Part shown: piece after piece, positions 11,321 through 60,112 of the stretch
How positions within the stretch are numbered: the stretch's first letter is position 1
How the letters are laid out: the number at the start of each line of letters is the position of its first letter
Source of the DNA: an uncultured virus (IMG/VR IMGVR_UViG_3300020727_000009)
Lineage: Duplodnaviria > Heunggongvirae > Uroviricota > Caudoviricetes
Length of the DNA stretch: 64,000 bases
Virus record (IMG/VR): IMGVR_UViG_3300020727_000009
Location: 1-64,000 of that record
Direction: 5' to 3' (one strand)
The notes under the pieces: generated by a model
Told to the model about the DNA's origin: nothing
Database searches by the model: none
What the model saw: only the letters and a program-made list of their open reading frames with translations
Made by a program: the position numbers and the translations under genes

Positions 11321-13624
11321 GTGACAAGGGCTTTCTTATCCTCGGCTAACGTAGCAGGTACGCTTGTCATTAATACGACAGGTATTAGTCAGGCTTTACA
11401 GCTAGTAGGTTATGCAAATCGTGGTGGTACCGGGTATCATGATTTTCTCATCGTTACTAACACCTACTCGGGTGCCACCAACCCTAGCAAAAACTTTCGT
11501 GTTAACAGCACAGGTGATCTTCAGATCATCAACGATGCCTATAGCGCAAACATCTTCAACCTTACGGATGCCGGTGTTTTAAGCGTACCTAAAATCTCTG
11601 CTGGAGGAACAACCGGTACGTCAGGTCAAGTACTTCAATCTACAGGTTCTGGGTTACAGTGGGCCTCTGTTGGCGGTAGCGGAACAGTAACCTCTATCAC
11701 TGCAGGTACTGGTCTTACTGGAGGAACAATAACCTCTTCCGGAACATTGGCTATTGATACTACTGTTGTTCCACGGCTCGGTGTAGACAATACTTTTACA
11801 GGAAATCTTACAGCTCCAAAATTTATAACTTCTGGCGGCACATCAAGTCAGTTTGTTAAGGGTGATGGAACCCTAGATTCAAGCACATATTTAACTACAG
11901 GAACAGCGGCATCTACTTACTCCCCTATTGCTGGATCCTCGTCACTGACCACTACCGGAACCATCACTACTGGTACTTGGTCAGGCTTGTTTGGTGCCGT
12001 ATCTGGAGCCAATCTAACCAACCTAACAGCGGGTAATCTTACTGGAACTATTCCCTCAACTGTATTAGGCAACTCTACGCACTATATCGGTACTACATCT
12101 ATTGCCTTAAACCGTGCGTCTGCTTCTCAATCTCTAACCGGTGTTAGCATTGATGGCAATGCAGCTACCGCAACTAAGCTGCAAACTGCTCGTTTGATTA
12201 ACAGCGTTTCGTTTGATGGCTCTGCCGATATTACAATTAAAGCGGTCAATCCAAATGCTCTTACAATAGGCACAGGCCTTAGCGGCTCATCCTATGACGG
12301 TTCTGGTGCTGTAACCGTAGCTATTGACTCTACTGTTGCAACACTAACCGGCGTCCAGACCCTTACAAATAAGACCTTAACTGTACCGGTAATTGATAAC
12401 ATTAACGCAGCATCTGCAACCGGAACTACAGCAACCCTGTTTCCTAACGTAACAACTGGAGCCCTTGCTATCGGTGCCGGTATTACTACAGGTACGGTAA
12501 ACATTGCCGCTGTTGGAACCGGTGCCAACACAATCAATATTGGTAACACTAACAGTACCGTAACCATTAACGGTAACCTTACCGTTACCGGAACAACCGA
12601 AACTATCAACTCTTCTACCCTACTGGTTCAAGATAAGAATATAGAAATTGGCAAGGTTGCTACACCTTCTGATTCCACCGCAAATGGTGGAGGTATGCTT
12701 CTATACGGTACCACTAACAAAACTCTTCAATGGCAGTCTTCAACCAGTTCATGGCTTTCATCTGAGCACTTTGATCTTGCATCCGGTAAAACCTACCATA
12801 TTGCTGGAACCACAGTTCTTACCCCTACACAGGTTCTAGGTCGCACCCCAGGTGGAACGACAGGGGGCGATATTGCCACTATTGACGCCACCCAGACTCT
12901 TACAAATAAGGCAATCTCTGGGTCTTCTAACACCCTTACCAACATTGCTAACTCAAGCCTTACCAACTCATCTATTACGTTGGGTACAACCTCTGTTTCA
13001 TTGGGCGGAACTACCCTAACACTCTCTGGATTAACATCTGTAACTGCAACCTCTCACATAACCAGTGGCGGTACATCTTCACAGTTTGTTAAGGGAGATG
13101 GCTCTCTAGACTCATCTACATACCTAACCACCGGTACTGCTGCCTCTACATACTCACCTATTGCCGGATCTTCTTCTATCACTACTGTAGGCACTATTAC
13201 CTCGGGATCATTCCCTGCAGCAAATATTGCGGCAGGCTCTCTATCTACTGGCGTTGTGCCTACGGCAGCATCTGTTACAAGCGCCGCCTCTGGTCTTGGC
13301 TATACAGGAATGCCTCAAAATTTACAGCCAGCAGTGGGATCAACATATACCTTAATAGCCAGCGATGCTGGAAAGCACATCTACTTTAACGCAAACTGCA
13401 CACTTACCGTTCCAGCAAATGCATCGGTCGCCTTTCCTGTAGGCACGTCTATAGCCTTGGTAGCAGCTTCTAGCGTGACTGTGACGGTTTCTATCACATC
13501 TGATATACTAATGCAAGCAGGAACCGGGGCTACAGGGTCTAGAACCTTAGCACCATACGGAATGGCAACTCTCTTAAAAGTTGCTGCAACTACTTGGATG
13601 ATTAGTGGAAATGGGCTTACGTAA
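11321..13624 (+). CDS. Fibre protein A
   Basis: Thr/Gly/Ser-rich; QTLTNK repeats, GNAATATKLQTARLIN motif, C-terminal TYTL...DAGK...W.ISG domain. Confidence 0.85.
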   Translation: MTRAFLSSANVAGTLVINTTGISQALQLVGYANRGGTGYHDFLIVTNTYSGATNPSKNFRVNSTGDLQIINDAYSANIFNLTDAGVLSVPKISAGGTTGTSGQVLQSTGSGLQWASVGGSGTVTSITAGTGLTGGTITSSGTLAIDTTVVPRLGVDNTFTGNLTAPKFITSGGTSSQFVKGDGTLDSSTYLTTGTAASTYSPIAGSSSLTTTGTITTGTWSGLFGAVSGANLTNLTAGNLTGTIPSTVLGNSTHYIGTTSIALNRASASQSLTGVSIDGNAATATKLQTARLINSVSFDGSADITIKAVNPNALTIGTGLSGSSYDGSGAVTVAIDSTVATLTGVQTLTNKTLTVPVIDNINAASATGTTATLFPNVTTGALAIGAGITTGTVNIAAVGTGANTINIGNTNSTVTINGNLTVTGTTETINSSTLLVQDKNIEIGKVATPSDSTANGGGMLLYGTTNKTLQWQSSTSSWLSSEHFDLASGKTYHIAGTTVLTPTQVLGRTPGGTTGGDIATIDATQTLTNKAISGSSNTLTNIANSSLTNSSITLGTTSVSLGGTTLTLSGLTSVTATSHITSGGTSSQFVKGDGSLDSSTYLTTGTAASTYSPIAGSSSITTVGTITSGSFPAANIAAGSLSTGVVPTAASVTSAASGLGYTGMPQNLQPAVGSTYTLIASDAGKHIYFNANCTLTVPANASVAFPVGTSIALVAASSVTVTVSITSDILMQAGTGATGSRTLAPYGMATLLKVAATTWMISGNGLT

Positions 13625-15327
13625 TGTCTGGTATTTTTCAAGGGTTAATGAACTTTATCCAAACGGCTTTTGCCTCCTTTTCGGATAACTTCAATAGAAC
13701 CACTTCAGGTTCGCTAGGAACATCTAGCTCAGGCGGTGCTTGGAAAGCAGAGCGTGGCGTTTGGAGCGCCAACGGATATTCTGCTACTACTGCCACAGCA
13801 GCATCTTCATACCCACTTGCTGACGTAAACATGACCTCCCAAAGCAATACCTCTTCAATTTCTGTGGGCTCTACCTTTGTATTCTCTGCTTCTGGAACAA
13901 TCTCAACCGTAACCCCAACAACTAGTGGGTATACCGTTGTTGTTACCGGACTTAGCTCCACAGCAGGTCTTGGCGCAGGTCAATGGATCTCAGCTACACC
14001 TGGAACTGGATCTCTTGGAACAGATACTGATATTCAGATTGTTTCGGTAGATAGCTCTAGCCAGATCACTCTTGAGGTTCAGGCCTCTTCAGCCCCAACT
14101 ACAGGTAGCATTACTAACGTGGCCACCCGCAATAACGATGGTGGTGCTGGTGTTGCTATGTGGGTTACTGATTCGGGCAACTGGTGGGGAGTAACTTATG
14201 GTCGCTCAACCAATACTTCCTGTAACTGCTCCACCTGTGCAACCTACTCTTGTGCTGCGTATACCCCATATGTAACCGGAACTTATTGCGGAAACTACGC
14301 CTACTATAGCAGTGCATCATGTACCGGTGGCTACTCTTATGCAACCAACTATGGAGTTGTAAGCTATTCATATGCTGTATCTGGATACGGCTGTACTGGA
14401 GGCTACTCTTATGCAACCAACTATAATTCAAACTACGCATACTACTCCACCTACGCATGTGCTTCTTATACTCCATCATGTGTAGCCTACGCTAACAACT
14501 ATGGATGTAGTGGATACTCTTCCGGATCTTCTTGTAGCTCATACTATTCAGGATCTTGTGCATCCTATGGAACCTCCTACTCCTGTTTAGCCTACGGAAA
14601 CGTTTACTATAAAGGTGGAAGCTACTACATCCGCGCTCCAGATTGCACTAGCTATGCCGTGAGTGGGCACCCATGCGCTAGCTATTCTTCTGGCTGCTTG
14701 TCTTTCAGCACTTATTACAGCTGTTCAAGCTACTCTACTTCAGGCTCCAGCTGCTCAGCTTATGCAGGCTCTACTTGTAGCTCATACGGTGTATCAAGCT
14801 ATGGAACTCACCAGGTATATAGCGTATCAAGCTATTCTGGCCCTAACTGTGGCGGATATGGAGCTAATTCCTACTCTGGACCAAACGCCAACTACGGAAT
14901 TTCAAGCTATTCTGGCCCTAACTGCAACTCTTTTACTAATAACTACTATGGCCCAGTATGTACCGTTTACTACGCCACCTATGCCCCATACTGCTCTTCC
15001 CCTCAATATGGCTATACCTCCTGTAACTGCCAGACCTGTTTCCCTGGATATATTCGCCTTATCCAGTCCTCAAGTAACGTTGTATCTGAGATTACCCGTT
15101 GGAGCCTATCCCAGCTTGCTGCAGCGTTTAAGGTAATTACCAATGCTGTAACTAAGGTTATTACCATCCGCCCATACTCAAATACCGCTTTGACCACCCA
15201 AATAGGTTCCGACCTCACATATACAGCAACAGGTGCTACAATAGCCACTAAGTTTGGAATCGTCCTAGGACCTTCTGATTACGTTCAAGGTAATCAACTA
15301 GACGACTTCAATTCCCAGTCAAACTAA
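13624..15327 (+). CDS. Putative fibre-tip adhesin A with a 273-aa Cys/Tyr/Ser insert
   Basis: Coupled to fibre A (TAATG); scaffold shared with 20832..22100; 26 mirror-spaced Cys. Confidence 0.7.
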   Translation: MSGIFQGLMNFIQTAFASFSDNFNRTTSGSLGTSSSGGAWKAERGVWSANGYSATTATAASSYPLADVNMTSQSNTSSISVGSTFVFSASGTISTVTPTTSGYTVVVTGLSSTAGLGAGQWISATPGTGSLGTDTDIQIVSVDSSSQITLEVQASSAPTTGSITNVATRNNDGGAGVAMWVTDSGNWWGVTYGRSTNTSCNCSTCATYSCAAYTPYVTGTYCGNYAYYSSASCTGGYSYATNYGVVSYSYAVSGYGCTGGYSYATNYNSNYAYYSTYACASYTPSCVAYANNYGCSGYSSGSSCSSYYSGSCASYGTSYSCLAYGNVYYKGGSYYIRAPDCTSYAVSGHPCASYSSGCLSFSTYYSCSSYSTSGSSCSAYAGSTCSSYGVSSYGTHQVYSVSSYSGPNCGGYGANSYSGPNANYGISSYSGPNCNSFTNNYYGPVCTVYYATYAPYCSSPQYGYTSCNCQTCFPGYIRLIQSSSNVVSEITRWSLSQLAAAFKVITNAVTKVITIRPYSNTALTTQIGSDLTYTATGATIATKFGIVLGPSDYVQGNQLDDFNSQSN

Positions 15328-15338
15328 GGAGATAATAC

Positions 15339-15674
15339 ATGGCTGACGATTTGCTACCAGTTCCACCCCTTGTTGTGCCAACACCACCTGAGACATCAGG
15401 TCGTTATAGGGTTGCAATGGTTATTAACGGGGTTGTTCACACTGTTTTTAATCTAGATACCACAGACGCAGCACGCTACCTTTCAAACCCTACATTTATT
15501 CAAATCCCTAAGACACTTTATGTTGACCCAGGATTTTTATACACTGATGGGGCTTTCACACCACCGCCTGCCGTTGATGCTATTCCTGCAAACCCACAAA
15601 ACGCTGCACCAGTAGCGTCTACTCCACAAGAGGTACCTGCAACACCATCGGTAGCTCCAGAACCACAAGCATAG
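15339..15674 (+). CDS. Small protein, paralog family 1 (putative fibre/adhesin chaperone)
   Basis: RVAMVINGVVHTVF...LSNPTFIQI; similar to 16384 and 22800. Confidence 0.7.
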   Translation: MADDLLPVPPLVVPTPPETSGRYRVAMVINGVVHTVFNLDTTDAARYLSNPTFIQIPKTLYVDPGFLYTDGAFTPPPAVDAIPANPQNAAPVASTPQEVPATPSVAPEPQA

Positions 15675-15691: not shown

Positions 15692-16384
15692 ATGAAAGTA
15701 ATACGATTTGTTCCAGAAATTGAAGATAAAGAGCTCATGCTCCTTGAGCCAGAGCCGTGTAAAAAGTACGTACCTCAATGGTATAGAGATGGCGAGTATC
15801 ACTGGGTTGATGAAAACGGGAATAACAATCCGGGCTTAAAGACCTGCAAGCCCTTTATTGATGTGATGATCGGCGGGTATTTTCTCCTTATACCTTTTGA
15901 CATCCACGTCACCCGTGATGAAGACGGAAAAATGAATATAAGGTGGGATGGGCCAGATGCATGGCAAGGCTTTGTTGGTGAACGCCCTAGTGCTATTGGA
16001 GCCACAATCCCTGTGCCTGCCGGTCACAGCAAGAACCATTTGATATGGTCTTCTAAGTGGGGTTGGAAAACACCACGTGGTTGGAGCACTATTGTTACCC
16101 ACCCATTTAACAGAAGCGATCTTCCATTTAGAACTATGTCTGCTACTATTGACAGCGACAAATTCTTTACTAATGGCAACATTCCTTTTCATATAAGGGA
16201 AGGCTGGACAGGTACTATTCCTGCTGGCACACCTTTTGTACAAATCATACCCGTTAAAAGAGCTTCATGGAGATCTTTTGTAGATGTTGGTTTGACTGCT
16301 CTTGGAAGAGTTAAGTCTGTAAACGTACGTGTTGAGCAGTATAAGTATAAAAACGTCGAGTGGGTTAAGAAGGATTACGAGTAA
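15692..16384 (+). CDS. dUTPase-fold-like protein A (DUF6065-like)
   Basis: PQWY, LKTCKPFIDVM.GGY, TPRGWS, ATIDSD and GTPFVQIIP motifs; paralog of 22120. Confidence 0.65.
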   Translation: MKVIRFVPEIEDKELMLLEPEPCKKYVPQWYRDGEYHWVDENGNNNPGLKTCKPFIDVMIGGYFLLIPFDIHVTRDEDGKMNIRWDGPDAWQGFVGERPSAIGATIPVPAGHSKNHLIWSSKWGWKTPRGWSTIVTHPFNRSDLPFRTMSATIDSDKFFTNGNIPFHIREGWTGTIPAGTPFVQIIPVKRASWRSFVDVGLTALGRVKSVNVRVEQYKYKNVEWVKKDYE

Positions 16385-16770
16385 TGGATAAGGTTATTAG
16401 GAACTACGATGTTCCAGAAGTAAGGCCTATGAGTACTAAAGAGTTTGTTAAGTACTTAAAGGGAAAGCGTGCAGCTAAAAAACATGACCACGATCATCAG
16501 CATGCCCCTGCAGAACATGTTCATGGCCCAGAATGTGCGGTAAACGAGCCTCCTGCCGGAGTAGAAGTCGTATCCTTGGCTATCGTTTTAGATGGTATCG
16601 TAGTAGATGTTATGAACGTTCAAAAGGGTTTTAGCGAACTTCTTTTAAAGGGACCATCATTTGTTAAGATTAATGATGGAGACCCACGCCCTCCTGTTGG
16701 ATCTGTCCATAAAGATGGCAAGTTTGAACCATTTGGCATCCACGGAGTTACAAGGCGTGGATCACAATAA
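16384..16770 (+). CDS. Small protein, paralog family 1, with a His-rich linker
   Basis: HDHDHQH...HVH; SLAIVLDGIVVDVM...LKGPSFVKI. Confidence 0.7.
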   Translation: MDKVIRNYDVPEVRPMSTKEFVKYLKGKRAAKKHDHDHQHAPAEHVHGPECAVNEPPAGVEVVSLAIVLDGIVVDVMNVQKGFSELLLKGPSFVKINDGDPRPPVGSVHKDGKFEPFGIHGVTRRGSQ

Positions 16771-17045
16771 TGTCAGATACCCCTAGGGAAGTAAAACCGT
16801 GGGATATGCTGAACAAAAATATGGAGCGTGCTCTCCCAGCTATTGCTGAGAATAGGCTTAAAACCTGCAAAGGTTGTGAGCGCTTCATAAAGCTAACCCA
16901 CCAGTGCCGTGAATGCGGATGCATAATGAATGCTAAAGTTAAGCTTCAAGATGCCAGGTGCCCGCTAAACAAGTGGGTAACTCCAGACCTCCCTTTTGAT
17001 AGGGAACTTACAGAGGATGATTTAACTAAAATAATCGAGGGATAA
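16770..17045 (+). CDS. Cys-rich small protein (DUF6171-like)
   Basis: RLxxCxxC...CxxCGC...CPxxKW pattern. Confidence 0.7.
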   Translation: MSDTPREVKPWDMLNKNMERALPAIAENRLKTCKGCERFIKLTHQCRECGCIMNAKVKLQDARCPLNKWVTPDLPFDRELTEDDLTKIIEG

Positions 17046-17047
17046 CA

Positions 17048-18055
17048 ATGAAGTCTACTAGCACCACTACGCTCAATCATACGTCATATCAAACGTCTTA
17101 CCGCTTTGCTCCAGAGGAAGTAGGTCTGGTTGCAAGCAACAATATCAACATGTTTCAGGTTCACCCAAAGTTTGGAAAGAAAGAGAAGCATGTAAAAGAC
17201 TTCATCTCAGACCAGATGAAGGTATTTGTTTATCTGGGGGGATCTTTCTACCACTTTATGCATGAGGATCTAGGTGAGTTTTTAGCTCAATACGCTTTAA
17301 CTCCAGATGCCCTGTTTATTATTGATATCACTGGGGTTGTAGATAGAGATCCGCTTCCAACCTACATTCAGAACTTCTTTAAGTTCCTTAATAAGAACGG
17401 CGTAGACTATGCGCCGGTAGATCTTAGGGTCATAAATAAGTTCAACATCAATAACCTCTATTTTAGAGACCTGTTAGTAGAGTCGTATGAGGTAAACAAC
17501 CCTTGGCCAAAGATCCACGAAATGTCTAAGCAGTTCATTACCCCGGATGTAAACGTGGCAGATGGTAAGAAAGTCTACCTAACTAGAAAGAATTACAAGG
17601 GCAGGTCCCTTAAAGCTCTGATCAAAGGGCGGCTTCCATATGAGGATGATGACCGCATGGATGATGAAGGCAAGGTAGAGAACTACTTTGCATCTTTAGG
17701 GTTTGATATTGTAGCCCCCGATGAATTTAAGACCTTTGAATCACAGATCAGCTACTTTAGCAAGGCTAAGTTGGTAGCATCAACAACTAGCTCTGGTCTT
17801 GTAAACGCTGCATTTATGCCGCCTGGGTCTGCCGTGCTTGAGCTGACTACTCCGCTTATTTCTTTTACTAGTGTTGGTAACGGTGTTACTGAGCCTGCCT
17901 CTGTAGGCACAGAAGAGATGCACCACTTCTATCACTTAATGGCCGCAAGATTGGGTCACCGCTACGTCTCTATTCCTAATCTAAATAGAAGTTCGGACGA
18001 GGTAATTAATACTATTGAAAACGATCCTTTCTTGAAAGCGTGGTTATCAGCATGA
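17048..18055 (+). CDS. Glycosyltransferase, GT61/DUF563-like
   Basis: KVYLTRK...GFDIV.P...FESQISYFSKAKLV....SGLVNAAFMPPGSAVLEL. Confidence 0.8.
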   Translation: MKSTSTTTLNHTSYQTSYRFAPEEVGLVASNNINMFQVHPKFGKKEKHVKDFISDQMKVFVYLGGSFYHFMHEDLGEFLAQYALTPDALFIIDITGVVDRDPLPTYIQNFFKFLNKNGVDYAPVDLRVINKFNINNLYFRDLLVESYEVNNPWPKIHEMSKQFITPDVNVADGKKVYLTRKNYKGRSLKALIKGRLPYEDDDRMDDEGKVENYFASLGFDIVAPDEFKTFESQISYFSKAKLVASTTSSGLVNAAFMPPGSAVLELTTPLISFTSVGNGVTEPASVGTEEMHHFYHLMAARLGHRYVSIPNLNRSSDEVINTIENDPFLKAWLSA

Positions 18056-19413
18056 AAAAAGTTATAATCTTTGATCTTGATGGGGTCTTGATTGACAGCA
18101 AGGACATTCATTTTACCGCTCTGAATATGGCGTTGGAAGATGTTTCTCCTGAGCTTGTAATTAGTACTTTTGACCACAAGAATATATATGAGGGGTTGCC
18201 TACTAAGGAGAAGCTGTTTATTCTCTCTGAGAGTAAGGGGCTTGTTCAAGAGCTGCACCCAGTAATTTGGGAACTTAAGCAAAAGTACACTGCAGAGATG
18301 TTTGAGAACGTAGTAGAAGATAGGGATCTTGTAGAGCACTTTAAGTACATTGCATCAAAGGGCATTGGTATCGGCGTTGCCAGTAACAGTATTTCCAAGA
18401 CTGTAGAGACCTGCCTAGATAAACTGGGGATACTTCCATACGTGGATGTAGCCATATCTAATGGCGGAGTTGCAAACTCTAAGCCCCACCCAGAAATGTA
18501 TTGGTCTATCATGAACTATTTCAAGACTGTTCCAACAAATGTTGTTATCTTTGAAGACAGCTTTGTTGGAAAACTTGCTGCTAGGGATAGTGGGGCTCAT
18601 CTTATTGAGATTAAGAATAGGGAAGATCTTACTAAAGAAAAGATTGATCTTGCTCTAGAGCACCTATCTAAAGCCTCTTCATTTAGGGATAAGAAGATGA
18701 ATGTTTTGATCCCAATGGCAGGACTAGGGAGTCGTTTTGCGGATGCTGGCTATAGCTTCCCTAAACCTCTTATTGAAGTTAACGGTAAGCCTATGATCGA
18801 GCGTGTAGTAGAGAGCCTTGGTATAGAGGCAAACTACATCTATGTTTCTATGCAGGAGCATGTAGAAAAATACAACTTGATGTTCATGCTAGACAAGATC
18901 ACCCCTGGATGCCATTTGATCAGCACCCCAGTGCTTACAGGCGGTGCGGCCCAGACCTGTTTACTTGCAAGAGAGCTTATTAATAATGATGAGCCTCTGA
19001 TCATAGCTAACTCAGATCAAATCGTTGACTGGGACAGCAGAGACTTTATGTATCATATGAACGTAAAGAATGCTGATGCCGGCATTGCAACATTCACCTC
19101 TACCCACCCTAAGTGGTCTTATGCAAGAATCGCATCTGATACAGGCCTTGTTTTAGAAGTTGCTGAGAAGAAGCCTATTAGCAATCATGCAACTGTGGGC
19201 ATTTACTATTGGAAGCATGGCTCAGACTTTGTTAAGTACGCTGAGCAGATGATGGAAAAGAACATCACAGTTAACGGAGAGTTCTATACCGCCCCAGTAT
19301 TTAATGAAGCTATTAATGATGGGAAGCGTGTATATGCTATGCATGTTAATAAGATGTGGGGAGTGGGAACTCCAGAGGATCTAAACAACTACCTTAGGAG
19401 TAACAATGCTTAA
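18052..19413 (+). CDS. HAD phosphatase fused to a sugar-phosphate nucleotidyltransferase
   Basis: HAD motifs FDLDGVL, KPHP and FEDS; NTP-transferase motif IPMAGLGSRF...PKPL, plus EKKP and GTPEDL; ATG 18052 overlaps the upstream stop. Confidence 0.9.
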   Translation: MKKVIIFDLDGVLIDSKDIHFTALNMALEDVSPELVISTFDHKNIYEGLPTKEKLFILSESKGLVQELHPVIWELKQKYTAEMFENVVEDRDLVEHFKYIASKGIGIGVASNSISKTVETCLDKLGILPYVDVAISNGGVANSKPHPEMYWSIMNYFKTVPTNVVIFEDSFVGKLAARDSGAHLIEIKNREDLTKEKIDLALEHLSKASSFRDKKMNVLIPMAGLGSRFADAGYSFPKPLIEVNGKPMIERVVESLGIEANYIYVSMQEHVEKYNLMFMLDKITPGCHLISTPVLTGGAAQTCLLARELINNDEPLIIANSDQIVDWDSRDFMYHMNVKNADAGIATFTSTHPKWSYARIASDTGLVLEVAEKKPISNHATVGIYYWKHGSDFVKYAEQMMEKNITVNGEFYTAPVFNEAINDGKRVYAMHVNKMWGVGTPEDLNNYLRSNNA

Positions 19414-19896: not shown

Positions 19897-20832
19897 ATGA
19901 CAGTCGGTTTTCCTAGTGCAGTCTATCCCTACACAGCTCGTGTAGATCTTCAGGATACTGTTGTAGCTAATGACGTAAACTCTCTGCAGCAAGAAGTCAG
20001 AGCTATTGAGACAGGCCTCGGAGTTCCTTCTGACGGCTTTGCAGGCGGCGTTCTTGTATCTAACTTCACATCATCTACAGCTTTTAGCACAGGTACAACA
20101 TCCTGGACTACCCTAGCTCAGCGTCTTGCAAACATTGAAAACGGTCTGATCTATGGCGTAGGTAACGCTCCGTATGTATCTAAAACTGGCGGCAGCACCA
20201 TCCTTACCAGTTCTGCTGGCGGTGTGGGTCTCACCCTAACTACTGGTTCTGGAACCAATAACCTTCTTACTACAGCAGGGTTTACCTTAAGCTATTTGGG
20301 TATTCCACAGGTAAGCGGAAGCAACGTTCTCTATGTGGGCAGCACTGACTACAACTCCCTAAACACATCTATTACAACAACCCTGCCTAACTCCATCGCT
20401 ACAAAGGTCCCTCTTTCGACTGTAACGACCGCTGGAGACCTTATCTACGGTACTGGGTCATCTACTGTAGGCCGCATAGGTATTGGTTCTACAGGGCAGT
20501 ATCTGACCGTTTCTGGGGGTATCCCAACCTGGTCTACTCTACCTTCATATCTTCCTACAAGCACTTTGACAACAAACGGCGACCTTCTAACCTATAGCAG
20601 CGGAAACACACGCTTGGGTATCGGATCTACCGGACAAGTTCTTACAGTGGTTGCTGGCCTACCTGCTTGGCAGACACCTACAACCTCATACGTCTCTCAG
20701 ACTAACGGATCAGTCACAACAGCATCTACAGTAACAGCATCTTCTAACGTGGTACGCAATACGTGGGTAAGCACTTCTACCCCAACCTCTGGACAAGGCA
20801 TTGAAGGCGACGTCTGGTTGGTGTATGTATAA
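19897..20832 (+). CDS. Fibre protein B
   Basis: N-terminal ANDVNSLQQEV.AIE..LG; two TTxGDL...RxGIGSTGQxLTV..G.PxW repeats; C-terminal STSTP..G.EGDVWL. Confidence 0.85.
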   Translation: MTVGFPSAVYPYTARVDLQDTVVANDVNSLQQEVRAIETGLGVPSDGFAGGVLVSNFTSSTAFSTGTTSWTTLAQRLANIENGLIYGVGNAPYVSKTGGSTILTSSAGGVGLTLTTGSGTNNLLTTAGFTLSYLGIPQVSGSNVLYVGSTDYNSLNTSITTTLPNSIATKVPLSTVTTAGDLIYGTGSSTVGRIGIGSTGQYLTVSGGIPTWSTLPSYLPTSTLTTNGDLLTYSSGNTRLGIGSTGQVLTVVAGLPAWQTPTTSYVSQTNGSVTTASTVTASSNVVRNTWVSTSTPTSGQGIEGDVWLVYV

Positions 20833-22100
20833 TGAGTGGTCAAGTCAAAGTAGGCGGGGTTTGGCGTACAGCTGGTAGTATTCTAACTAAGGTGACAACC
20901 GGCGGTATTCAAAGCTGGCACTCTGTAACATCTGGTTGGGTTAAAATTGGTGGCGTTTGGCATCAGTGGTTTACTGGACAATTTGCTGATACTTTTGCAA
21001 GACTTACCTCTGGTTCGTTAGGGACATCTTCTAGCGGCGGAGTATGGAACGCCATCTCTGGCATCTGGTCCTCTAATAACGGCGTGGCTACAACTGCTAC
21101 TAGCCCATCTACATACCCTATTGCTGCTACGGATATGGGTAACCCGAACGTAACCGCTACCGCTCAAAACGTAAGCTTAGGTTCTGGCATATCATTCTTA
21201 GTAACAGACTCTAATAACTGGCTTGCTGCTGTGGGTGTTGAGAGCGATACTTACTTTACGTACTCATATTCTTATACTGCCCCGTACACATATACAGCCC
21301 CATACACCTACGCCACCCCATATACCTCAGGTACACCACTAGGTTATTATGCAAGCGGAACCACTTACTACTACTCTACTGTTTATCAAGGTACAGGAAA
21401 CTATGTTTCAGGAACCAACTATTCTTGGGACGGAGCATACGTATACTCCACCCATTATCAGTATGCTACTGCAGGTTTTTGGGATCATGGAACTTACCAG
21501 TATTACATTGCAAACCCAGGTGCATACGGAGCACCATATAGTTACATAGGTGGCGGACAATATGCCGGTACACAGCGGTATGTAGTTCAATACGGTACCT
21601 ACAGCACGTATGTTCAACCAACCTACACCTCATATAACAACGCTGTAGCTCATACTGGCGATGTAAGCACCCCATATACAGCACAAACTTACACCTCTTA
21701 TAGTTCACTAGGATCCTACACAAATTACTCTCCATACTATTCCGGAACCTACTCGTCTACAGACAGCTACACGGTTCCCTCTACCTATACAGCAACAGGG
21801 TCTGCCACAACTACGAACATCCAGTATTTGCTTAAAATTTACCAATCAGTGGCCGGAACAGTTTCCACGCTTGCCACCACCACCCTAAGTGGTATTTTAG
21901 CTTCTCTAAAGGTTGTAGTTCATGGTACTTCAGTTACCGCCACAGCGTTTAGCGATAATTCACAAACCACTAGCGTAGGCACCGCCACAACCACTTTAGG
22001 CAGTTCTCCTACCGCAACAAAAGCTGGTATAATTTTGACTACGTCGGATCAAGCTCAGGGAAGTACCTTAGGTTACTTTACGGCCACGATCACAGGTTAA
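20832..22100 (+). CDS. Putative fibre-tip adhesin B with a ~190-aa Cys-free Tyr/Thr insert
   Basis: Coupled to fibre B (TAATG); Trp-rich N-terminal VKVGGVW/VKIGGVW; scaffold shared with 13624. Confidence 0.7.
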   Translation: MSGQVKVGGVWRTAGSILTKVTTGGIQSWHSVTSGWVKIGGVWHQWFTGQFADTFARLTSGSLGTSSSGGVWNAISGIWSSNNGVATTATSPSTYPIAATDMGNPNVTATAQNVSLGSGISFLVTDSNNWLAAVGVESDTYFTYSYSYTAPYTYTAPYTYATPYTSGTPLGYYASGTTYYYSTVYQGTGNYVSGTNYSWDGAYVYSTHYQYATAGFWDHGTYQYYIANPGAYGAPYSYIGGGQYAGTQRYVVQYGTYSTYVQPTYTSYNNAVAHTGDVSTPYTAQTYTSYSSLGSYTNYSPYYSGTYSSTDSYTVPSTYTATGSATTTNIQYLLKIYQSVAGTVSTLATTTLSGILASLKVVVHGTSVTATAFSDNSQTTSVGTATTTLGSSPTATKAGIILTTSDQAQGSTLGYFTATITG

Positions 22101-22119
22101 AAAGTTTACGGAGGAGCGC

Positions 22120-22803
22120 ATGAAGGTCTTTAGGTTTGTACCTAGTCCTGGTGTAAAAAAAGAACATAAACCGCCAGTACCAGCAAAGAGCGAAGTCCCA
22201 GACTGGTATAAAAATGCTGAGCGTCATTACTATGATAAGCATGGCGTCAAATACGACGGCTTAAAAGTCTGTGTACCTTTTCTAGACGCCATGATTTCTG
22301 GTTATATGTTGGTTACCCCCGTTGATGTAGAAGTAACTTTAGACGAAGAGGGTAGATCTAAACTAAGCTGGGAAGAGACAGGCTTTCCGGTGCTAACCGA
22401 ACGCCTTGGTTTGACAGGCCATACTATCCCACGTCCTGCCGGACATGCCCACAACCACCTTGCATGGAACTGTCAATGGGGTTGGAAAGTTCCTCCAGGA
22501 TATAGCGCACTTTTAACGCACCCAATAAATAGATTTGACCTACCTTTCACTACTATGTCTGGGATTGTTGACAGCGAAGAGTTTACTGGTTGGGGTAACG
22601 TACCCTTTTTCATAAGAGAGGGTTGGACAGGTACAATACCTGCAGGAACACCCATTGCCCAGCTAATCCCTATTAAAAGAGATAAGTGGGTATCCGTCCA
22701 AGACTACACTGAAACGGACCATCAAGTAGAAAGAAGTAGCTATCTTCGTTCTGCAACAGGTGTGTATAAAAAACTATGGCGTAAGCCAAAGGAGTATTCA
22801 TGA
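22120..22803 (+). CDS. dUTPase-fold-like protein B (DUF6065-like)
   Basis: PDWY, LKVCVPFLDAM.SGY, VPPGYS, GIVDSE and GTPIAQLIP motifs; paralog of 15692. Confidence 0.65.
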   Translation: MKVFRFVPSPGVKKEHKPPVPAKSEVPDWYKNAERHYYDKHGVKYDGLKVCVPFLDAMISGYMLVTPVDVEVTLDEEGRSKLSWEETGFPVLTERLGLTGHTIPRPAGHAHNHLAWNCQWGWKVPPGYSALLTHPINRFDLPFTTMSGIVDSEEFTGWGNVPFFIREGWTGTIPAGTPIAQLIPIKRDKWVSVQDYTETDHQVERSSYLRSATGVYKKLWRKPKEYS

Positions 22804-22965: not shown

Positions 22966-23955
22966 ATGTCTATCTATATTGCTATCCCAACCATGTATGA
23001 TAACCAGGTTCCCTTTACCGTATTTGAGGCTATCCAAAGCGCCGCTAATCCAGACGACTTAACTATAGGCCTTGTTCTTATGGAGACTGCCCATTCAAAT
23101 GTAGACTATGAGTTCTACTATAAAGATAAGATTGAGAAGCTACTTGAATTCTCCCAAGTTAAGTTTAAGAGGTTTAAGGTAGGAGAATATGAGCCGTCTA
23201 TTGGTTTTGGTCGAGATCAAGCCCTATCTATGTATGATGGGGAAGACTATATTCTTCAAGTAGATTCCCATACACTCTTTGAAAGAAATTGGGATACTAA
23301 GCTTATTAAGATGTACGAGGGTGCCCTAGAAGCTACTCAAAATCCAAAAACAATTATGACAGCTTATTTGCCTGGGTTTAAACATCTAGATAACGGTGAG
23401 CGTGTTCCTTTAAGGCACGATAAGCTTGCCCAGTACCCCATCATGTTGTTTAGGACATGGGTAAATACAGGAATTCCTGCTTGGAAAGACGAACCGTTGG
23501 CCGGTCCTGATTCGCACATGTACAGGTCAGACGATCTATATGTACCTGCTGTTAAGTTTAACGCTCAGTTTGTCTTCTCTAACAAGCACTATTTTGGTAA
23601 TACCGGCTTAGATATAGACACTATTTTTTGGGAAGAAGAGATCATTCAAACTATGAGTTTGCTAGAGGCTGGTTTTTCTTTAGTGTTTCCAAACATGACC
23701 GTTCCGCTATCTCATCTATTTCAAAATAATACAGACTTTGATCAAGTACTGCACCCAACCTACAGGGTAAGTGGAGCCAACCCTAAGATACTTCCTAATG
23801 AGCAGTACTACAACAGTATTAGGGACAACTGGGTAAAGTACGTAACTAATCCGGCTAACAAGGCCAAGGTTGACCGGTTCTGCAGGTACACAAAGATCAA
23901 CCTTAAGTACGGGCCATTTAAAGAGGGGTACATCCCTAAAGAGTTTAATAGGTGA
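22966..23955 (+). CDS. Glycosyltransferase, GT60-like (Skp1-hydroxyproline GlcNAc-transferase family)
   Basis: SIYIAI, GR....SMYDGEDYILQVDSHTLF..NWD..LI, IMTAYLP and FWEEE motifs. Confidence 0.8.
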   Translation: MSIYIAIPTMYDNQVPFTVFEAIQSAANPDDLTIGLVLMETAHSNVDYEFYYKDKIEKLLEFSQVKFKRFKVGEYEPSIGFGRDQALSMYDGEDYILQVDSHTLFERNWDTKLIKMYEGALEATQNPKTIMTAYLPGFKHLDNGERVPLRHDKLAQYPIMLFRTWVNTGIPAWKDEPLAGPDSHMYRSDDLYVPAVKFNAQFVFSNKHYFGNTGLDIDTIFWEEEIIQTMSLLEAGFSLVFPNMTVPLSHLFQNNTDFDQVLHPTYRVSGANPKILPNEQYYNSIRDNWVKYVTNPANKAKVDRFCRYTKINLKYGPFKEGYIPKEFNR

Positions 23956-45203: not shown

Positions 45204-46425
45204 CGAAGAGAGGTTAATCTCTAGGGTAGTACGTACCCGTGAGATCATACCTGCCTTAGAGGCCGGGTTAGAAGACAACTGGTTTTACAATGCGGAGAAC
45301 CGAGCTGTCTGGAAGTTTATTAGGCAGCACTGGACAAAGTACGAAGAGGTCCCAACAGCCGTAACGGTTAAGGATAACTTCCCTACTTATCGTTTGCTTG
45401 CCGTAGAGGATTCGCTTGAGTACCTTGTAGATCAACTAGTTGACTACCGTAAGCGCCAGAAGACTATTGAGGTTGTGCAGAACGCTGCAGAGTCCATTGC
45501 TTCTGGAGATCACGAGAAGGCCATCGCAGAGATGGCTCAAGGTATCTCTACAATCTTTGACGAGGGCATCGCACAGACCTCTGATATAGATCTTACTGAG
45601 GCGCCTGAAAAGCGCTTTGATGAGTACATGTCTATCAAGACTCGTGATGGGGGTCTGCTTGGCTACCGCACCGGCTTCAAGACTATTGACGAAGCTACTG
45701 CCGGGTTACAGCCAGGTCAGCTAATTACTATCATTGCTCCTCCTAAGACAGGTAAGTCTGTGCTAGCTATGCAGATTGCTGTTAACGTGCACGAAGATGG
45801 TTACGTCCCTATGTTCCAGTCTTTTGAGATGACCAACATTGAGCAGCAACACCGTCACGATGCAATGCGAGCTAAGATTGCCCACTCTCGACTTGTTCGT
45901 GGAAACCTCAACCTTGACGAAGAACGCCGGTACAAAGAGGCGCTTAAGAAGATGGACTCCATGCAGAAGTTCTATCTTACGGATTCTTCCTCTGCTATGA
46001 CTGTCTCAGGACTTCAAGCAAAGATCGAAAAGATTCGTCCAGATATTGTTTTTGTAGACGGCGTGTACTTGATGGTGGACGAGGCAAGCGGAGAGTCAAA
46101 TACTCCGGGAGCACTTACCAGCATTACTCGTAACCTAAAGCGTTTGGCGCAAAGGCATAACATCCCTATCGTTATCTCAACCCAGGTTCTTCTTTGGAAG
46201 ATGAAGCGTGGCCAGGTAAGCGCAGACTCTATCGGTTACTCCTCATCATTCTTCCAAGACTCAGATGTTATCTTGGGACTTCAAAAGCAAGACGAGGAAG
46301 ATGACTCCTCACGTGAACTTCGCATCGTGGCTAGCCGTAACTCCGGCCCAGCTACTAGCGACTTACTTTGGGACTGGGAGGGCGGACGCTTTGAAGAGTA
46401 TGGATCCTTTGGTACTCAGATCTAG
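45190..46425 (+). CDS. dnaB: Replicative DnaB-like helicase
   Basis: TGF..IDE...GL.PGQL, APPKTGKS, SFEM, FVDGVYL and QDSDV motifs. Confidence 0.95.
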   Translation: MAADNEERLISRVVRTREIIPALEAGLEDNWFYNAENRAVWKFIRQHWTKYEEVPTAVTVKDNFPTYRLLAVEDSLEYLVDQLVDYRKRQKTIEVVQNAAESIASGDHEKAIAEMAQGISTIFDEGIAQTSDIDLTEAPEKRFDEYMSIKTRDGGLLGYRTGFKTIDEATAGLQPGQLITIIAPPKTGKSVLAMQIAVNVHEDGYVPMFQSFEMTNIEQQHRHDAMRAKIAHSRLVRGNLNLDEERRYKEALKKMDSMQKFYLTDSSSAMTVSGLQAKIEKIRPDIVFVDGVYLMVDEASGESNTPGALTSITRNLKRLAQRHNIPIVISTQVLLWKMKRGQVSADSIGYSSSFFQDSDVILGLQKQDEEDDSSRELRIVASRNSGPATSDLLWDWEGGRFEEYGSFGTQI

Positions 46426-46648
46426 TCCGTTTGACGGTACTCAACTCTGCATTGAAGAAGACTCAAATCTTTTCTTTCCAGAGTATTACTCGGATACAGC
46501 ACAGGTCGAAAAAGCTAAAGCAGTTTGTGACAACTGCTGGATCAAAGGCAAGTGCCTAGATTACGCAATGCAGACCCCGATGCTACAGGGCATTTGGGGA
46601 GGTACAACACCTAGAGAAAGAAAGCGGTTACGATTATCAAAAATATAA
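46400..46648 (+). CDS. whiB: WhiB-family transcription factor 1
   Basis: C...FFP...AKAVCxxC...C...GIWGGTTPRER. Confidence 0.93.
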   Translation: MDPLVLRSSPFDGTQLCIEEDSNLFFPEYYSDTAQVEKAKAVCDNCWIKGKCLDYAMQTPMLQGIWGGTTPRERKRLRLSKI

Positions 46649-57401: not shown

Positions 57402-57740
57402 ATGGTATTGCGTTACTCAGACGACCCATCATGGACTTGGCGGTATGACGCCAAGTGTCAGGGAGAAGACACAGAGATCTTCTTTCCTCCAAGAGATAAA
57501 GCATTGTACAAACCGATTGCAGATAAAGCTAAAGCTATTTGTTGGGGTAAGGACGGTCGCCCTCCTTGCCCAGTTAGACAAGAGTGTCTTAAGGAAGCTA
57601 TACTGGTATCGGAGCAGCACGGAATATTTGGCGGCATGTCGCATAGAGAAAGAAATGCTGTAGAGCGTAAGATCAAAAAACAGGGGATCACTCTAGATGA
57701 GTGGTTGGAGAAAGAGGGCAGAAAGTATGGGCAAACCTAA
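57402..57740 (+). CDS. whiB: WhiB-family transcription factor 2 (CX8C variant)
   Basis: AKC...FFP...AKAICWGKDGRPPCPVRQEC...GIFGG...ER. Confidence 0.9.
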   Translation: MVLRYSDDPSWTWRYDAKCQGEDTEIFFPPRDKALYKPIADKAKAICWGKDGRPPCPVRQECLKEAILVSEQHGIFGGMSHRERNAVERKIKKQGITLDEWLEKEGRKYGQT

Positions 57741-59782: not shown

Positions 59783-59833
59783 GATATGTTCCTAGGTGGG
59801 CGACTAAAAATCGAACCTAAAGGACTACAAATC

Positions 59834-60112
59834 GTGAATGAAGAAAAAGAAGACGGATTCTTGCGTGTAGGCGCTGGATCTAATGCCCAAGCCGTAGGCT
59901 CAGCCATTGCACACGCACTGTATGAATCACCACAGGTAAAGCTCCGGGCAGTAGGAGCATCAGCAGTAAACCAGGCAGTAAAGGCAATTGCAATCGCAAG
60001 AGGCTATGTAGCCCCTCGTGGTTTAGACCTTAGCTGCCGTCCAGGATTTACCACTGTAGAGTCTAGGGATGGCAACATCTCAGCAATAGTCTTTACAATC
60101 TCGGTAAGTTAA
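59834..60112 (+). CDS. spoVS: SpoVS-family (Alba-like) protein
   Basis: S....VGSAIA...AVGASAVNQAVKAIAIARGYVAP.G.DL.C.PGF; GTG 59834 after AAGGA. Confidence 0.9.
   Translation: MNEEKEDGFLRVGAGSNAQAVGSAIAHALYESPQVKLRAVGASAVNQAVKAIAIARGYVAPRGLDLSCRPGFTTVESRDGNISAIVFTISVS

Follow-up and report, generated by a model that had tools for sequence, protein, structure and literature searches.

How would a protein chain fold in which 26 cysteines are set out in mirror order on either side of a short loop, and what would a phage do with it? One gene in the stretch of DNA analyzed here raises this question. The stretch, referred to below as the window, comprises 64,000 nucleotides (positions 1 to 64,000) of IMG/VR record IMGVR_UViG_3300020727_000009, an uncultured virus of the class Caudoviricetes. 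An initial annotation had proposed that residues 200-472 of the gene product (window 14221-15039) form an ultralong two-stranded hairpin cross-linked by nested disulfides or metal ions. The reading that we prefer, with a probability of roughly 0.6, is that of a hairpin stalk with nested cysteine pairs, likely disulfides, carried by a lectin-fold host-recognition protein of a contractile-tailed phage of Actinobacteria.

The ladder gene and its cysteine map

The gene, here called the ladder gene, and the parts of its product are as follows.

13624..15327 (+): ladder gene, 567 aa; predicted lectin-fold protein with a cysteine-laddered stalk; 84 relatives, 271 representative clusters
13624..13872 (+): residues 1-83, N-terminal half of the predicted split ConA-like beta-sandwich; FSDNFNRTTSGSLGTSSSGG..W motif, conserved in the family alignment
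13873..14133 (+): residues 84-170, small extra beta-barrel domain; pLDDT 69-91 in the model of the window protein
14134..14220 (+): residues 171-199, predicted sandwich strands running into the stalk; GGxGxAxWVTDSGNWWGVxYGR, with invariant alignment columns; strands 176-194 in the model
14221..14586 (+): residues 200-321, outgoing (N) arm; 13 Cys, i.e., a CxCxxC clamp (200, 202, 205) and 10 rungs
14587..14643 (+): residues 322-340, tip loop LAYGNVYYKGGSYYIRAPD, carrying every K, R, and D of the stalk
14644..15039 (+): residues 341-472, returning (C) arm; 13 Cys, i.e., 10 rungs and a CxCxxC clamp (467, 469, 472)
15040..15324 (+): residues 473-567, C-terminal half of the predicted split sandwich; better conserved than any other part of the protein, pLDDT 98 in the model of the relative P0035

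Translation of 13624-15327 on the plus strand (567 aa) places the 26 cysteines exactly where they had been reported, at residues 200, 202, 205, 210, 222, 233, 257, 279, 286, 295, 304, 312, and 321 in the N arm and 341, 351, 358, 367, 377, 385, 409, 434, 446, 457, 467, 469, and 472 in the C arm. The gaps between them are, in order, 2 3 5 12 11 24 22 7 9 9 8 9 (20) 10 7 9 10 8 24 25 12 11 10 2 3, where the value in parentheses spans the tip, and both lists of spacings read outward from G331 were reproduced. At the two ends the outermost cysteine motif recurs in direct rather than mirrored order (2,3 each time), and the arms differ in their innermost base gap (5 vs 10). The compositional features described in the initial annotation are likewise present: the two ends read TSCNCSTC and TSCNCQTC (TSCNCxTC), Tyr or Phe follows at position +3 of 18 of the 26 cysteines (most being CxxY/F), Tyr accounts for 56 of the 286 residues at 195-480 (20%, about one in five), and K330, R337, and D340 are the only K/R/D residues in 200-472. 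Moreover, Glu is absent from residues 200-472, the stalk consists of 22% Ser, 20% Tyr, and 12% Gly, and residues 195-480 contain two His and no HxH motif.

The symmetry of the inner gaps is far from what the gap sizes would give in random order. The mean mirror misfit is 1.4 residues in the window protein vs 6.69 for shuffled gap orders, and no shuffle out of 2000 fitted as well (p=0.0005). Read instead as a direct repeat, the same gaps give a misfit of 8.0.

A DNA palindrome as the source of the symmetry was rejected, because no pair of inverted repeats was found in 14100-15150. The repeats in the arms are short and direct: 72- and 75-nt units occur within the arms, and NYG-x-SYS units are common to both. 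A DGR target was rejected because no reverse-transcriptase family was found among the 134 ORFs of the 93-kb genome; the intragenic repeats are short direct units only.

The direct repeats and the Ser/Tyr/Gly-rich composition fit a reading in which the chain forms a beta-solenoid or a series of small loops, with sequential cysteine pairing, or else a low-complexity and perhaps glycosylated Ser/Thr/Tyr-rich linker; the duplication of repeats would then have produced the apparent symmetry incidentally. Glycosyltransferase and sugar-nucleotide genes just downstream and the poorly modeled mid-stalk (pLDDT 22-47) agree with this as well. However, glycosylation is compatible with a hairpin and hence is no alternative to it, and the behavior of the gaps in the family makes this reading highly improbable.

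Mirror covariation in the family

The family comprises 84 relatives and 271 representative clusters (50% identity, E≤1e-3). For the symmetry counts 221 proteins were collected, 181 of which have at least 250 aa and at least 10 Cys. The number of cysteines is even in 171 of these 181. In 141 of the 181 the mirror misfit is the smaller of the two, in 24 the direct-repeat misfit is, and in 16 they are equal; in 78 of the 181 the mirror fit reaches p≤0.01 on shuffling. In the 171 proteins with even cysteine numbers, the arms are 16-177 and 21-191 residues long, a range of about tenfold in the family, with r=0.95 between the arms. The 1521 mirrored gap pairs in these proteins correlate with r=0.85, and 65% agree within ±1 residue, compared with r=0.10 and 30% for gaps of the same proteins taken in direct order. 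Very unequal gaps also sit at mirrored places, as exemplified by the pairs 46/50, 34/35, 92/92, and 69/65 residues in different relatives, and relatives share cysteine parity and positions although the intervening residues are not conserved.

Changes in gap size are also matched between the arms. In P0002, a gap of 22 has become 12 on one arm and the mirrored gap of 24 has become 13; P0003 and P0004 carry compensating changes of the same kind. Among the 454 large gap changes counted over 122 nearest-neighbor pairs, 250 are accompanied by a matching change in the mirrored gap, whereas a random other gap matches in 97. The mirror covariation of gaps and arm lengths speaks for an antiparallel hairpin and rules out a sequentially paired solenoid; the direct-order cysteine periodicity of disulfide-braced beta-solenoids is not seen in the ladder family (r=0.10) or in the window protein (misfit 8.0). 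Local sequential pairing or a solenoid fold, and homologs without the symmetry, had been named at the outset as observations that would count against a hairpin. The homologs retain the symmetry, and the correlations (0.85 mirrored, 0.10 direct) go against the solenoid.

What kind of hairpin this would be is constrained by the same numbers. Only 36% of the mirrored gaps are exactly equal, and among the equal ones odd gaps outnumber even gaps (271 vs 182). The excess of odd gaps is not what one expects of a canonical, flat beta-ladder in which all cystines occupy non-hydrogen-bonded sites, and together with the low share of equal gaps it argues against the stalk being a simple flat beta-ribbon.

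The number of rungs varies in relatives from 5 to 23 pairs, and seven of those listed contain no cysteine whatsoever. In the two of these that were read in sequence, P0147 and P0216, the Tyr-rich insert is retained, which makes the cysteines look like staples that can be dispensed with, a point that the initial annotation had not raised. At either end of the stalk, the CNCxTC motif is invariant in the family alignment. The tip loops of relatives are often rich in K/R, G, and N, with K in 62 and GG in 46 of 171. Relative to P0002-P0004, the stalk is 66-73% identical and the body 80-95%, and all gap columns but one lie in the stalk; the C-terminal part of the sandwich is 84-95% identical, with no indels. 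By these alignments, the stalk is the fast-evolving, hypervariable part of the ladder protein.

The even cysteine number in 171 of 181 relatives and the position-wise mirror matching are predicted if the stalk pairs with itself. They are not required on a reading in which the paired arms carry cysteines that bond to neighboring copies or to further proteins of the virion, or remain reduced and merely pack, with no intramolecular rungs. Precedents for links between chains exist. Virion-wide disulfide networks are reported for the actinophage Jabs, which infects Mycobacterium abscessus and has ~1,700 disulfides (PMC13419713), so that it also sets a precedent for disulfide-rich virions in actinophages, and for the Agrobacterium phage Milano (PMC10811340), and tail-tube rings of siphoviruses are described as disulfide-stabilized (PMC13576161). 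These particles resemble the proposed stalk in that cysteine cross-links serve as a structural device in released particles, but their links join subunits of capsid, tail, and sheath, whereas the ladder is proposed to be intrachain and to build a new projection. An oxidase gene was not found in the genome, which fits cysteines that stay reduced or are joined between chains. On the other hand, the 5 to 23 pairs among relatives have no known matching partner, and we consider this reading distinctly improbable.

The lectin-type body and the genomic setting

AlphaFold2 was applied to the window protein (27-sequence alignment; whole-model mean pLDDT 48.2) and to P0035, a relative with 10 pairs (116-sequence alignment). 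At the stalk base the strands are mirrored in both models, in the register of the cysteine pairs, but neither run modeled the mid-stalk, which lies at pLDDT 22-47 (22-31 over residues 230-430 in the window protein and 36-47 over residues 120-210 in P0035). Strands 203-210/213-232 of the window protein lie opposite 438-457/460-467, with all residue sums equal to 670; in P0035, strands 102-104/107-113 face 213-219/222-224, with all sums equal to 326. The strand sums at the base lie within 2-3 of those of the proposed cysteine pairs. Antiparallel arms, in register around the tip loop, are supported by family covariation, compensating indels, and mirrored base strands.

The body of P0035 is modeled at pLDDT 96-98. 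It matches the carbohydrate-binding module CBM66 (4b1m; Z 16.9, rmsd 2.7, 150 residues aligned), chain 8zdo_a of the mycobacteriophage Douge baseplate (Z 16.0), and the TM4 gp23 receptor-binding domain (9n6a; Z 15.3), followed by legume-lectin, galectin-like, and GH43 C-domain folds (Z 10-15). The best Foldseek match is the Douge central fiber (8zdp, E 2e-4). The window protein's own low-confidence model matches lectin folds weakly (Z 7.3-7.7), and the fold of its body, a ConA-like lectin/CBM beta-sandwich in the models, is assigned via P0035. The extra small barrel (84-170) gives weak barrel matches (Z about 7), and short relatives lack it. In these models, the stalk is an insertion in the lectin-type sandwich of a phage fiber-module protein, a feature absent from the initial annotation.

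The closest structural parallels to the body are receptor-binding heads of actinophages (Douge BppU-CBM and central fiber, 8zdo/8zdp; TM4 gp23, 9n6a) and CBM66 (4b1m), which share the sandwich fold with the P0035 body (Z 15.3-16.9, 150-170 residues); the common setting is a tail/fiber gene module of an Actinobacteria phage. The Douge CBM and fiber tip were shown to bind mycobacterial glycans, and the text of that paper contains the word "disulfide" nowhere and "cysteine" once, in a methods formula (PMC13033339). At the sequence level, these heads have no similarity to the ladder protein in Pfam, PHROGs, NCBIfam, or PDB sequences. Searches with the ladder protein gave no match to curated families in Pfam (E≤0.1), PHROGs (E≤0.01), or NCBIfam (E≤0.01), and a profile search of PDB sequences returned only a chance ribosomal match (E 0.28) and no similarity to gp37. 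The ESM Atlas returned only unnamed viral clusters. With tblastn against 50,697 GenBank phage records, neither the whole protein nor its N-terminal 199 aa or C-terminal 104 aa gave a match; the family has no member among GenBank phages, and therefore a cultured system is lacking.

The 93-kb genome is that of a myophage, with terminase, portal, capsid, sheath, tube, and baseplate genes. Three WhiB genes were found on scanning its 134 ORFs, and whiB is regarded as an actinophage marker (PMC10202952). The neighbors of the ladder gene in the window are as follows.

11321..13624 (+): fiber-like protein, 767 aa, upstream of the ladder gene; PHROG tail fiber / virion structural matches
15339..15674 (+): Pro-rich small protein, 111 aa; syntenic, downstream of the ladder gene
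15692..16384 (+): conserved neighbor, 230 aa, phrog_7084; part of Atlas look-alikes with DUF6065 (a lead only)
19897..22803 (+): second, paralogous module; duplicated fiber / ladder-type / DUF6065-like gene set
19897-20832 (+): fiber-like protein of the second module, 311 aa
20832-22100 (+): Cys-free ladder paralog, 422 aa, with a ~190-aa Tyr-rich insert; TAATG overlap with the 311-aa fiber gene
22120-22803 (+): DUF6065-like paralog of the second module, 227 aa

The ATG of the ladder gene overlaps the stop codon of the upstream fiber gene (TAATG), to which it is translationally coupled. Synteny around the ladder gene is conserved in viral contigs (54 loci, many of them near-duplicates of each other): a fiber-type neighbor lies upstream of 34 of 51 ladder-like ORFs, a neighbor of the 230-aa type lies within 1.5 kb downstream of 46 of 51, and the last ~90 residues (about 672-764) of the 767-aa fiber reappear just upstream of the ladder genes of other phages. 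A literature search found no paper on DUF6065. Glycosyltransferase and sugar-nucleotide genes occur shortly downstream of the ladder gene (GT61 at 17048, HAD+NTP-transferase at 18040, and a GlcNAc-type GT at 22966).

With regard to redox chemistry, virions assemble in a reducing cytoplasm, and no thioredoxin-, DsbA-, or Erv-type enzyme was found in the genome (Pfam E≤1e-3, 134 ORFs), an observation that counts against disulfides. The related Streptomyces phage LuckySocke, the capsid of which is 74% identical to that of the ladder phage, is annotated with a thiol oxidase or thioredoxin. At the corresponding place its annotation lists a tailspike and hypothetical proteins, and the ladder protein had no tblastn match in the phage collection that contains LuckySocke.

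The coupling to a fiber gene also bears on a reading in which hairpins stand side by side in a trimer (or dimer) and the cysteines of the arms coordinate an axial metal at each level. The needle of T4 gp37 is the obvious parallel. Its chain runs out to the tip and returns; this out-and-back course is what the mirror covariation of cysteine spacing indicates for the window protein and the family, and mirror symmetry is explained equally well by any such chain. Moreover, trimeric fibers, in general experience, often yield poor monomer models, as obtained here for the stalk, and the invariant CNCxTC at both stalk ends resembles metal-site motifs. The gp37 needle is described as a trimer with seven iron atoms coordinated by histidines along its length (PMC6957217), i.e., a fiber-tip element braced at regular axial levels, as proposed for the ladder stalk. 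The differences are substantial, however. In gp37, the bracing is by HxH and the needle is the end of a trimeric shaft; the ladder stalk has a single Cys per arm per level, no CxxC or HxH pair, and two His, and it is a loop inserted in a lectin-type sandwich, a fold class typical of self-contained modules. Cys-free relatives and the in-genome paralog retain the Tyr-rich insert, for which optional staples are the better fit, and the profile search of PDB sequences gave no similarity to gp37. On balance we regard the metal-bridged arrangement as unlikely. Co-folding of three copies of P0035 gave scores of 0.00 and 0.00 in a single job without controls, a result that counts neither for nor against a trimer.

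A proposed architecture and its meaning

If the stalk is a hairpin with nested cysteine pairs, the data can be combined into the following model. The product of the ladder gene would be a host-recognition protein in the virion of an uncultured myophage of Actinobacteria; its presence in the virion and its binding to a receptor are suggested by gene order and fold. The body is a lectin-type sandwich by its fold, split in sequence (residues 1-199 and 473-567), with the extra barrel at 84-170. Between two neighboring sandwich strands, a 273-residue loop would exit, run out, and come straight back, its arms antiparallel, in register, and held by nested pairs. Three pairs (C200-C472, C202-C469, and C205-C467) would clamp the base, and ten rungs would follow: C210-C457, C222-C446, C233-C434, C257-C409, C279-C385, C286-C377, C295-C367, C304-C358, C312-C351, and C321-C341. 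The rungs would close off a basic, Gly-rich tip loop of 19 residues, and Tyr at Cys+3 would flank each pair. The pairs are most likely disulfides, formed when the particle enters oxidizing surroundings, and the stalk would probably be a rod built from one chain. Its length changes by matched indels in both arms. As a probe for glycans on the host surface, the Tyr/Ser/Gly-rich stalk would determine how far the protein extends and what it recognizes, and the lectin body would offer a second glycan site and anchor the protein to the fiber encoded by the upstream gene. In this model the cysteine positions, the mirror covariation across the family, the lectin fold, and the gene context come from the data, whereas disulfide chemistry, the exact pairing, a rod shape, a monomeric state, and a role in receptor binding are inferred.

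The predicted connectivity has counterparts among small peptides. Theta-defensins, protegrins, and tachyplesins consist of two antiparallel strands with parallel nested disulfide rungs. They are free antimicrobial peptides of about 18 residues with 2-3 rungs each. Mirror-related cysteines on two arms are shared with the ladder stalk, which differs in having 13 pairs over 273 residues (5-23 pairs in relatives), with rungs 5-25 residues apart, and in being embedded in a 567-aa putative virion protein. The bovine ultralong CDR-H3, with which the initial annotation compared the stalk, is also a long two-stranded projection from a beta-sandwich with a distal binding element and hypervariable length and sequence. 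Its stalk is free of cystines, the disulfides being in the knob, whereas the ladder has cysteines along its entire stalk and ends in a plain tip loop of 19 residues. The ladder stalk is several times longer, and the origins are unrelated.

The mirror-ordered cysteine pattern is real, and we could not find a length-adjustable laddered stalk on a probable host-recognition protein of lectin type described; no account of such a design came up in a literature search that covered few subscription journals. Tentatively, and at odds that we place clearly below even, the stalk may represent an unrecognized building principle: a single-chain, two-stranded cystine ladder, adjustable rung by rung, that forms a stiff, Tyr-studded probe tens of nanometers long, with its reach tuned to the thickness of the host surface layer and with tip and sides diversifying for receptor choice. 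The ~40 nm proposed for its length is an upper bound that holds for full extension only.

Host-recognition proteins set the host range of phages, and they are almost unknown for the abundant uncultured phages of low-GC Actinobacteria. The 271 clusters (50% identity, E≤1e-3) would add to these a family in which a lectin head bears a hypervariable, length-adjustable stalk, with arms that co-vary as paired RNA strands do. Should the rungs prove to be disulfides, we would know of no longer cystine ladder, and the stalk would offer a natural template for stiff, length-programmable protein rods and for the display of binding loops at a set distance. It would also pose an evolutionary question, namely, how matched indels arise and become fixed in two distant parts of one gene.

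Mirror symmetry of the cysteine ladder

The ladder protein is encoded by the following ORF:

13624-15327, + strand: ladder gene, 567 aa

Its translation bears out the composition described in the initial annotation, namely 26 Cys at the residues claimed, TSCNCxTC at both ends of the stalk (residues 200-472), a Tyr content of about one residue in five (20%), most Cys in a CxxY/F context (18 of 26), and K, R and D restricted to the tip loop, since K330, R337 and D340, all between C321 and C341, are the only such residues in 200-472. The gaps between successive Cys read 2 3 5 12 11 24 22 7 9 9 8 9 [20] 10 7 9 10 8 24 25 12 11 10 2 3, with the tip in brackets. The mean misfit of the inner gaps to their mirror positions is 1.4 residues compared with 6.69 in shuffled orders, and none of 2000 gap shuffles gave an equal or better fit; the direct-repeat misfit is 8.0. 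Because no inverted DNA repeat was found in 14100-15150, where the only repeats common to both arms are short direct units, the symmetry is a property of the protein and not of the DNA.

A word-indexed search yielded 84 relatives, and HMMER, run exhaustively on 50%-identity representatives, gave 271 clusters at E<=1e-3, of which 128 reach E<=1e-10. None of the relatives carries a named annotation, and 50,697 GenBank phage records gave no match to the whole protein or to either conserved end. Of 221 proteins collected, 181 are 250 aa or longer and have 10 or more Cys, and 40 are shorter or have fewer Cys. In 141 of the 181 the gaps fit a mirror pattern better than a direct repeat, in 24 worse and in 16 equally well; shuffling gives p <=0.01 in 78, while many of those with p >0.01 cannot discriminate because their gaps are nearly uniform. 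Some relatives are perfectly palindromic in Cys spacing, for example P0064 (7 12 7 9 9 11 9 9 9 11 [18] 11 9 9 9 11 9 9 7 12 7).

The Cys count is even in 171 of the 181 relatives. In these 171 proteins the two arms, 16-177 and 21-191 residues long, correlate in length with r=0.95, and the 1521 mirrored gap pairs correlate with r=0.85 (65% within ±1 residue), compared with r=0.10 (30% within ±1 residue) when the same gaps are paired in direct order. Long Cys-free stretches likewise lie at mirrored places (46/50, 34/35, 92/92 and 69/65 residues). Close relatives show compensating changes, as in P0002 (82% identical in alignment A1, made with closer relatives), where 22 becomes 12 on one arm and 24 becomes 13 at the mirrored gap. 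In 122 nearest-neighbour pairs whose members have the same number of Cys, 454 gap changes of at least 4 residues were counted; 250 of them have a counterpart at the mirrored gap and 97 at a random other gap. The former is a rough figure, as some pairs are not close relatives and the indexing of rungs (proposed cross-arm Cys pairs) can slip. The mirror symmetry first noted in one sequence, with homologs proposed as the test, thus holds across the family. This covariation, similar in kind to that of RNA helices, supports antiparallel, in-register arms, a pairing to which we give a probability of about 0.9. A solenoid or sequential pairing of the Cys, considered as an alternative, is argued against by the same mirrored covariation.

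In an alignment with 27 closer relatives, the N-terminal ~200 and C-terminal 95 residues are well conserved and the middle of the protein, its Cys excepted, is unalignable. Moreover, in P0002-P0004 the stalk is 66-73% identical versus 80-95% for the body (residues 1-199 and 473-567), and all gap columns but one fall in the stalk. Judged from these alignments, the stalk is the fast-evolving part of the protein.

Stalk geometry and fold of the body

The commonest Cys gaps in the family are 5, 8, 7 and 11 residues. Mirrored gaps are exactly equal in 36%, and within ±1 in 58% without the base motifs; where they are equal, they are more often odd (271) than even (182). A flat two-stranded sheet with all cystines at non-hydrogen-bonded sites would demand even, equal gaps, which is at odds with both counts, so that between rungs the arms must form bulges or loops. 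Of the two-stranded needle initially envisaged, the antiparallel course of the arms is supported, and the length of ~40 nm is an upper bound, with 121-131 residues per arm fully extended. At Cys+3 there is an aromatic residue in 40% of cases on the N arm and 34% on the C arm across the family, which suggests that Tyr may pack beside each rung.

The AlphaFold2 model of the ladder protein, based on a 27-sequence alignment, is poor (mean pLDDT 48; 22-31 over residues 230-430). Its stalk-base strands, 203-210/213-232 and 438-457/460-467, are mirror images whose limits all sum to 670, near the 667-672 to which the residue numbers of the proposed Cys pairs add up. P0035, a 317-aa relative with 20 Cys, was modeled with a 116-sequence alignment as an all-beta structure with pLDDT 96-98 (residues 20-110) and 87-98 (211-317), in which mirrored strands 102-104/107-113 and 213-219/222-224 take in both CxCxxC motifs and the middle of the stalk is at pLDDT about 40. 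Structure prediction, suggested as a check in the initial annotation, thus gives mirrored strands at the stalk base in both proteins and leaves the mid-stalk at low confidence.

The body of P0035 matches CBM66 (Z 16.9, rmsd 2.7, 150 residues), the Douge baseplate chain 8zdo_a (Z 16.0), the TM4 gp23 receptor-binding domain (Z 15.3), the phage J-1 Dit CBM2 (Z 13.1) and legume lectins (Z 10-12), and its best Foldseek match is the Douge central fibre (E 2e-4). On the model of this relative, the body fold is assigned as a ConA-like lectin/CBM sandwich. Galectins and CBM66 are weak matches to the model of the ladder protein itself (Z 7.3-7.7), in which an extra domain at residues 84-170 (pLDDT 69-91) resembles small barrels (Z about 7). 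The Douge CBM and fibre-tip domains are described as binding mycobacterial surface glycans (PMC13033339).

Covalent staples or metal sites

The even-number rule is consistent with disulfides. Seven of the listed relatives have no Cys at all, and both of those whose sequences were examined, P0147 (with a central NGGK) and P0216 (with PPSYYAG repeats), keep the Tyr-rich insert. A Cys-free paralog is also present in a second module of the window:

19897-22803: paralogous module, with a 311-aa fibre-like gene and the two genes below
20832-22100: Cys-free paralog of the ladder protein, 422 aa
22120-22803: 227-aa paralog of the 230-aa neighbor of the ladder protein

This paralog shares the body motifs and has a Tyr/Thr/Ser/Gly insert of ~190 residues, such that one phage carries stapled and unstapled versions of the same design; its nearest relatives (viral loci L050 and L051) carry 22 Cys. 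One scaffold thus occurs both with and without Cys, as would be expected of optional covalent staples more than of metal sites that are essential. The main rival is an oligomeric needle braced by metal in the manner of the gp37 trimer, in which histidines hold seven iron atoms (PMC6957217). The invariant CNCxTC motifs at the stalk ends could still form a metal site, but a metal essential to the stalk fits less well with the Cys-free relatives and the paralog in the same genome. The rungs are more likely than not to be disulfides. About 1,700 disulfides are reported in the virion of Jabs, a phage of an actinobacterium (PMC13419713). Against disulfides, no thioredoxin-, DsbA- or Erv-like gene was found in the genome, so oxidation of the Cys would need to be spontaneous or host-dependent.

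Gene neighborhood, host and proposed role

Genes near the ladder gene include:

11321-13624: fibre-like gene, upstream, 767 aa
15692-16384: 230-aa neighbor, phrog_7084

The stop codon of the 767-aa gene overlaps the ATG of the ladder gene in TAATG, and the Cys-free paralog overlaps its upstream 311-aa fibre-like gene in the same way. Across 54 viral loci with 51 recognized ladder-like ORFs, 34 of the latter follow an ORF of 78-1283 aa matching the end of the 767-aa fibre protein (residues about 672-764) or the 311-aa protein, and 46 have a relative of the 230-aa protein within 1.5 kb downstream, counts that overstate independence because many loci are near-duplicates. In other phages, the ~90-residue C-terminal domain of the 767-aa protein (residues ~672-764) is found at the end of upstream proteins, 198-1283 aa long, that are unrelated in other respects; this conserved end may be a docking or receptor-binding end working with the ladder protein. 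Atlas clusters resembling the 230-aa protein have DUF6065 in 12-23% of members, which is a lead only, and no paper mentioning this family was found in the literature searched. One possibility is that the ~230-aa paralogs serve the Tyr-rich stalk protein, either as its dedicated chaperone or as an enzyme that modifies it.

Downstream, glycosylation genes lie among the fibre genes (17048-19413 and 22966-23955). They encode two glycosyltransferases, one of the GT61 family and one of GlcNAc type, and a fusion of a HAD hydrolase with a sugar-nucleotidyl transferase; virion proteins rich in Ser, Thr and Tyr may carry glycans. At 16770-17045 lies a gene for a 91-aa protein that bears CxxC...CxxC motifs and falls just short of the DUF6171 threshold (26.9 vs 27 bits); its synteny with the ladder module extends to many related loci.

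The window belongs to a 93-kb viral record, estimated to be 95% complete. Genes for terminase, portal, major capsid, tail sheath, tube and baseplate proteins identify a contractile-tailed phage, the tape measure of which has M23 and lysozyme domains. Three genes encode WhiB-family transcription factors:

46265-46648 (window)
57402-57740 (window)
86179-86544, minus strand (genome; L058:6179-6544, a sequence piece outside the window)

Since whiB is reported to occur only in Actinobacteriota and to serve as an indicator of actinophages (PMC10202952), these genes point to an actinobacterial host despite ~45% G+C. In its capsid protein the phage shares 74% identity with Streptomyces phages LuckySocke and BRock, and a low-GC actinobacterial host would fit the G+C of 42-49%. 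The phage also encodes a homologue of SpoVS (stage V sporulation protein S; window 59786-60112, Pfam E 8e-27) and, outside the window, an Hsp20 small heat-shock protein (genome 89398-89928; L058:9398-9928) and a proteasome-subunit-like fragment (genome 91192-91755; L058:11192-11755).

No description of a cysteine ladder of such design was found in the literature searched, in which subscription journals are thinly covered; the nearest concepts are small cystine-ladder peptides and the bovine ultralong CDR-H3. The ladder protein is most likely a receptor-binding accessory of the tail fibre, in which a lectin head would bear a covalently stapled, Tyr/Ser-rich hairpin stalk of adjustable length, with a basic tip loop at its far end. 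Gene order and fold together make a role in host recognition moderately likely.
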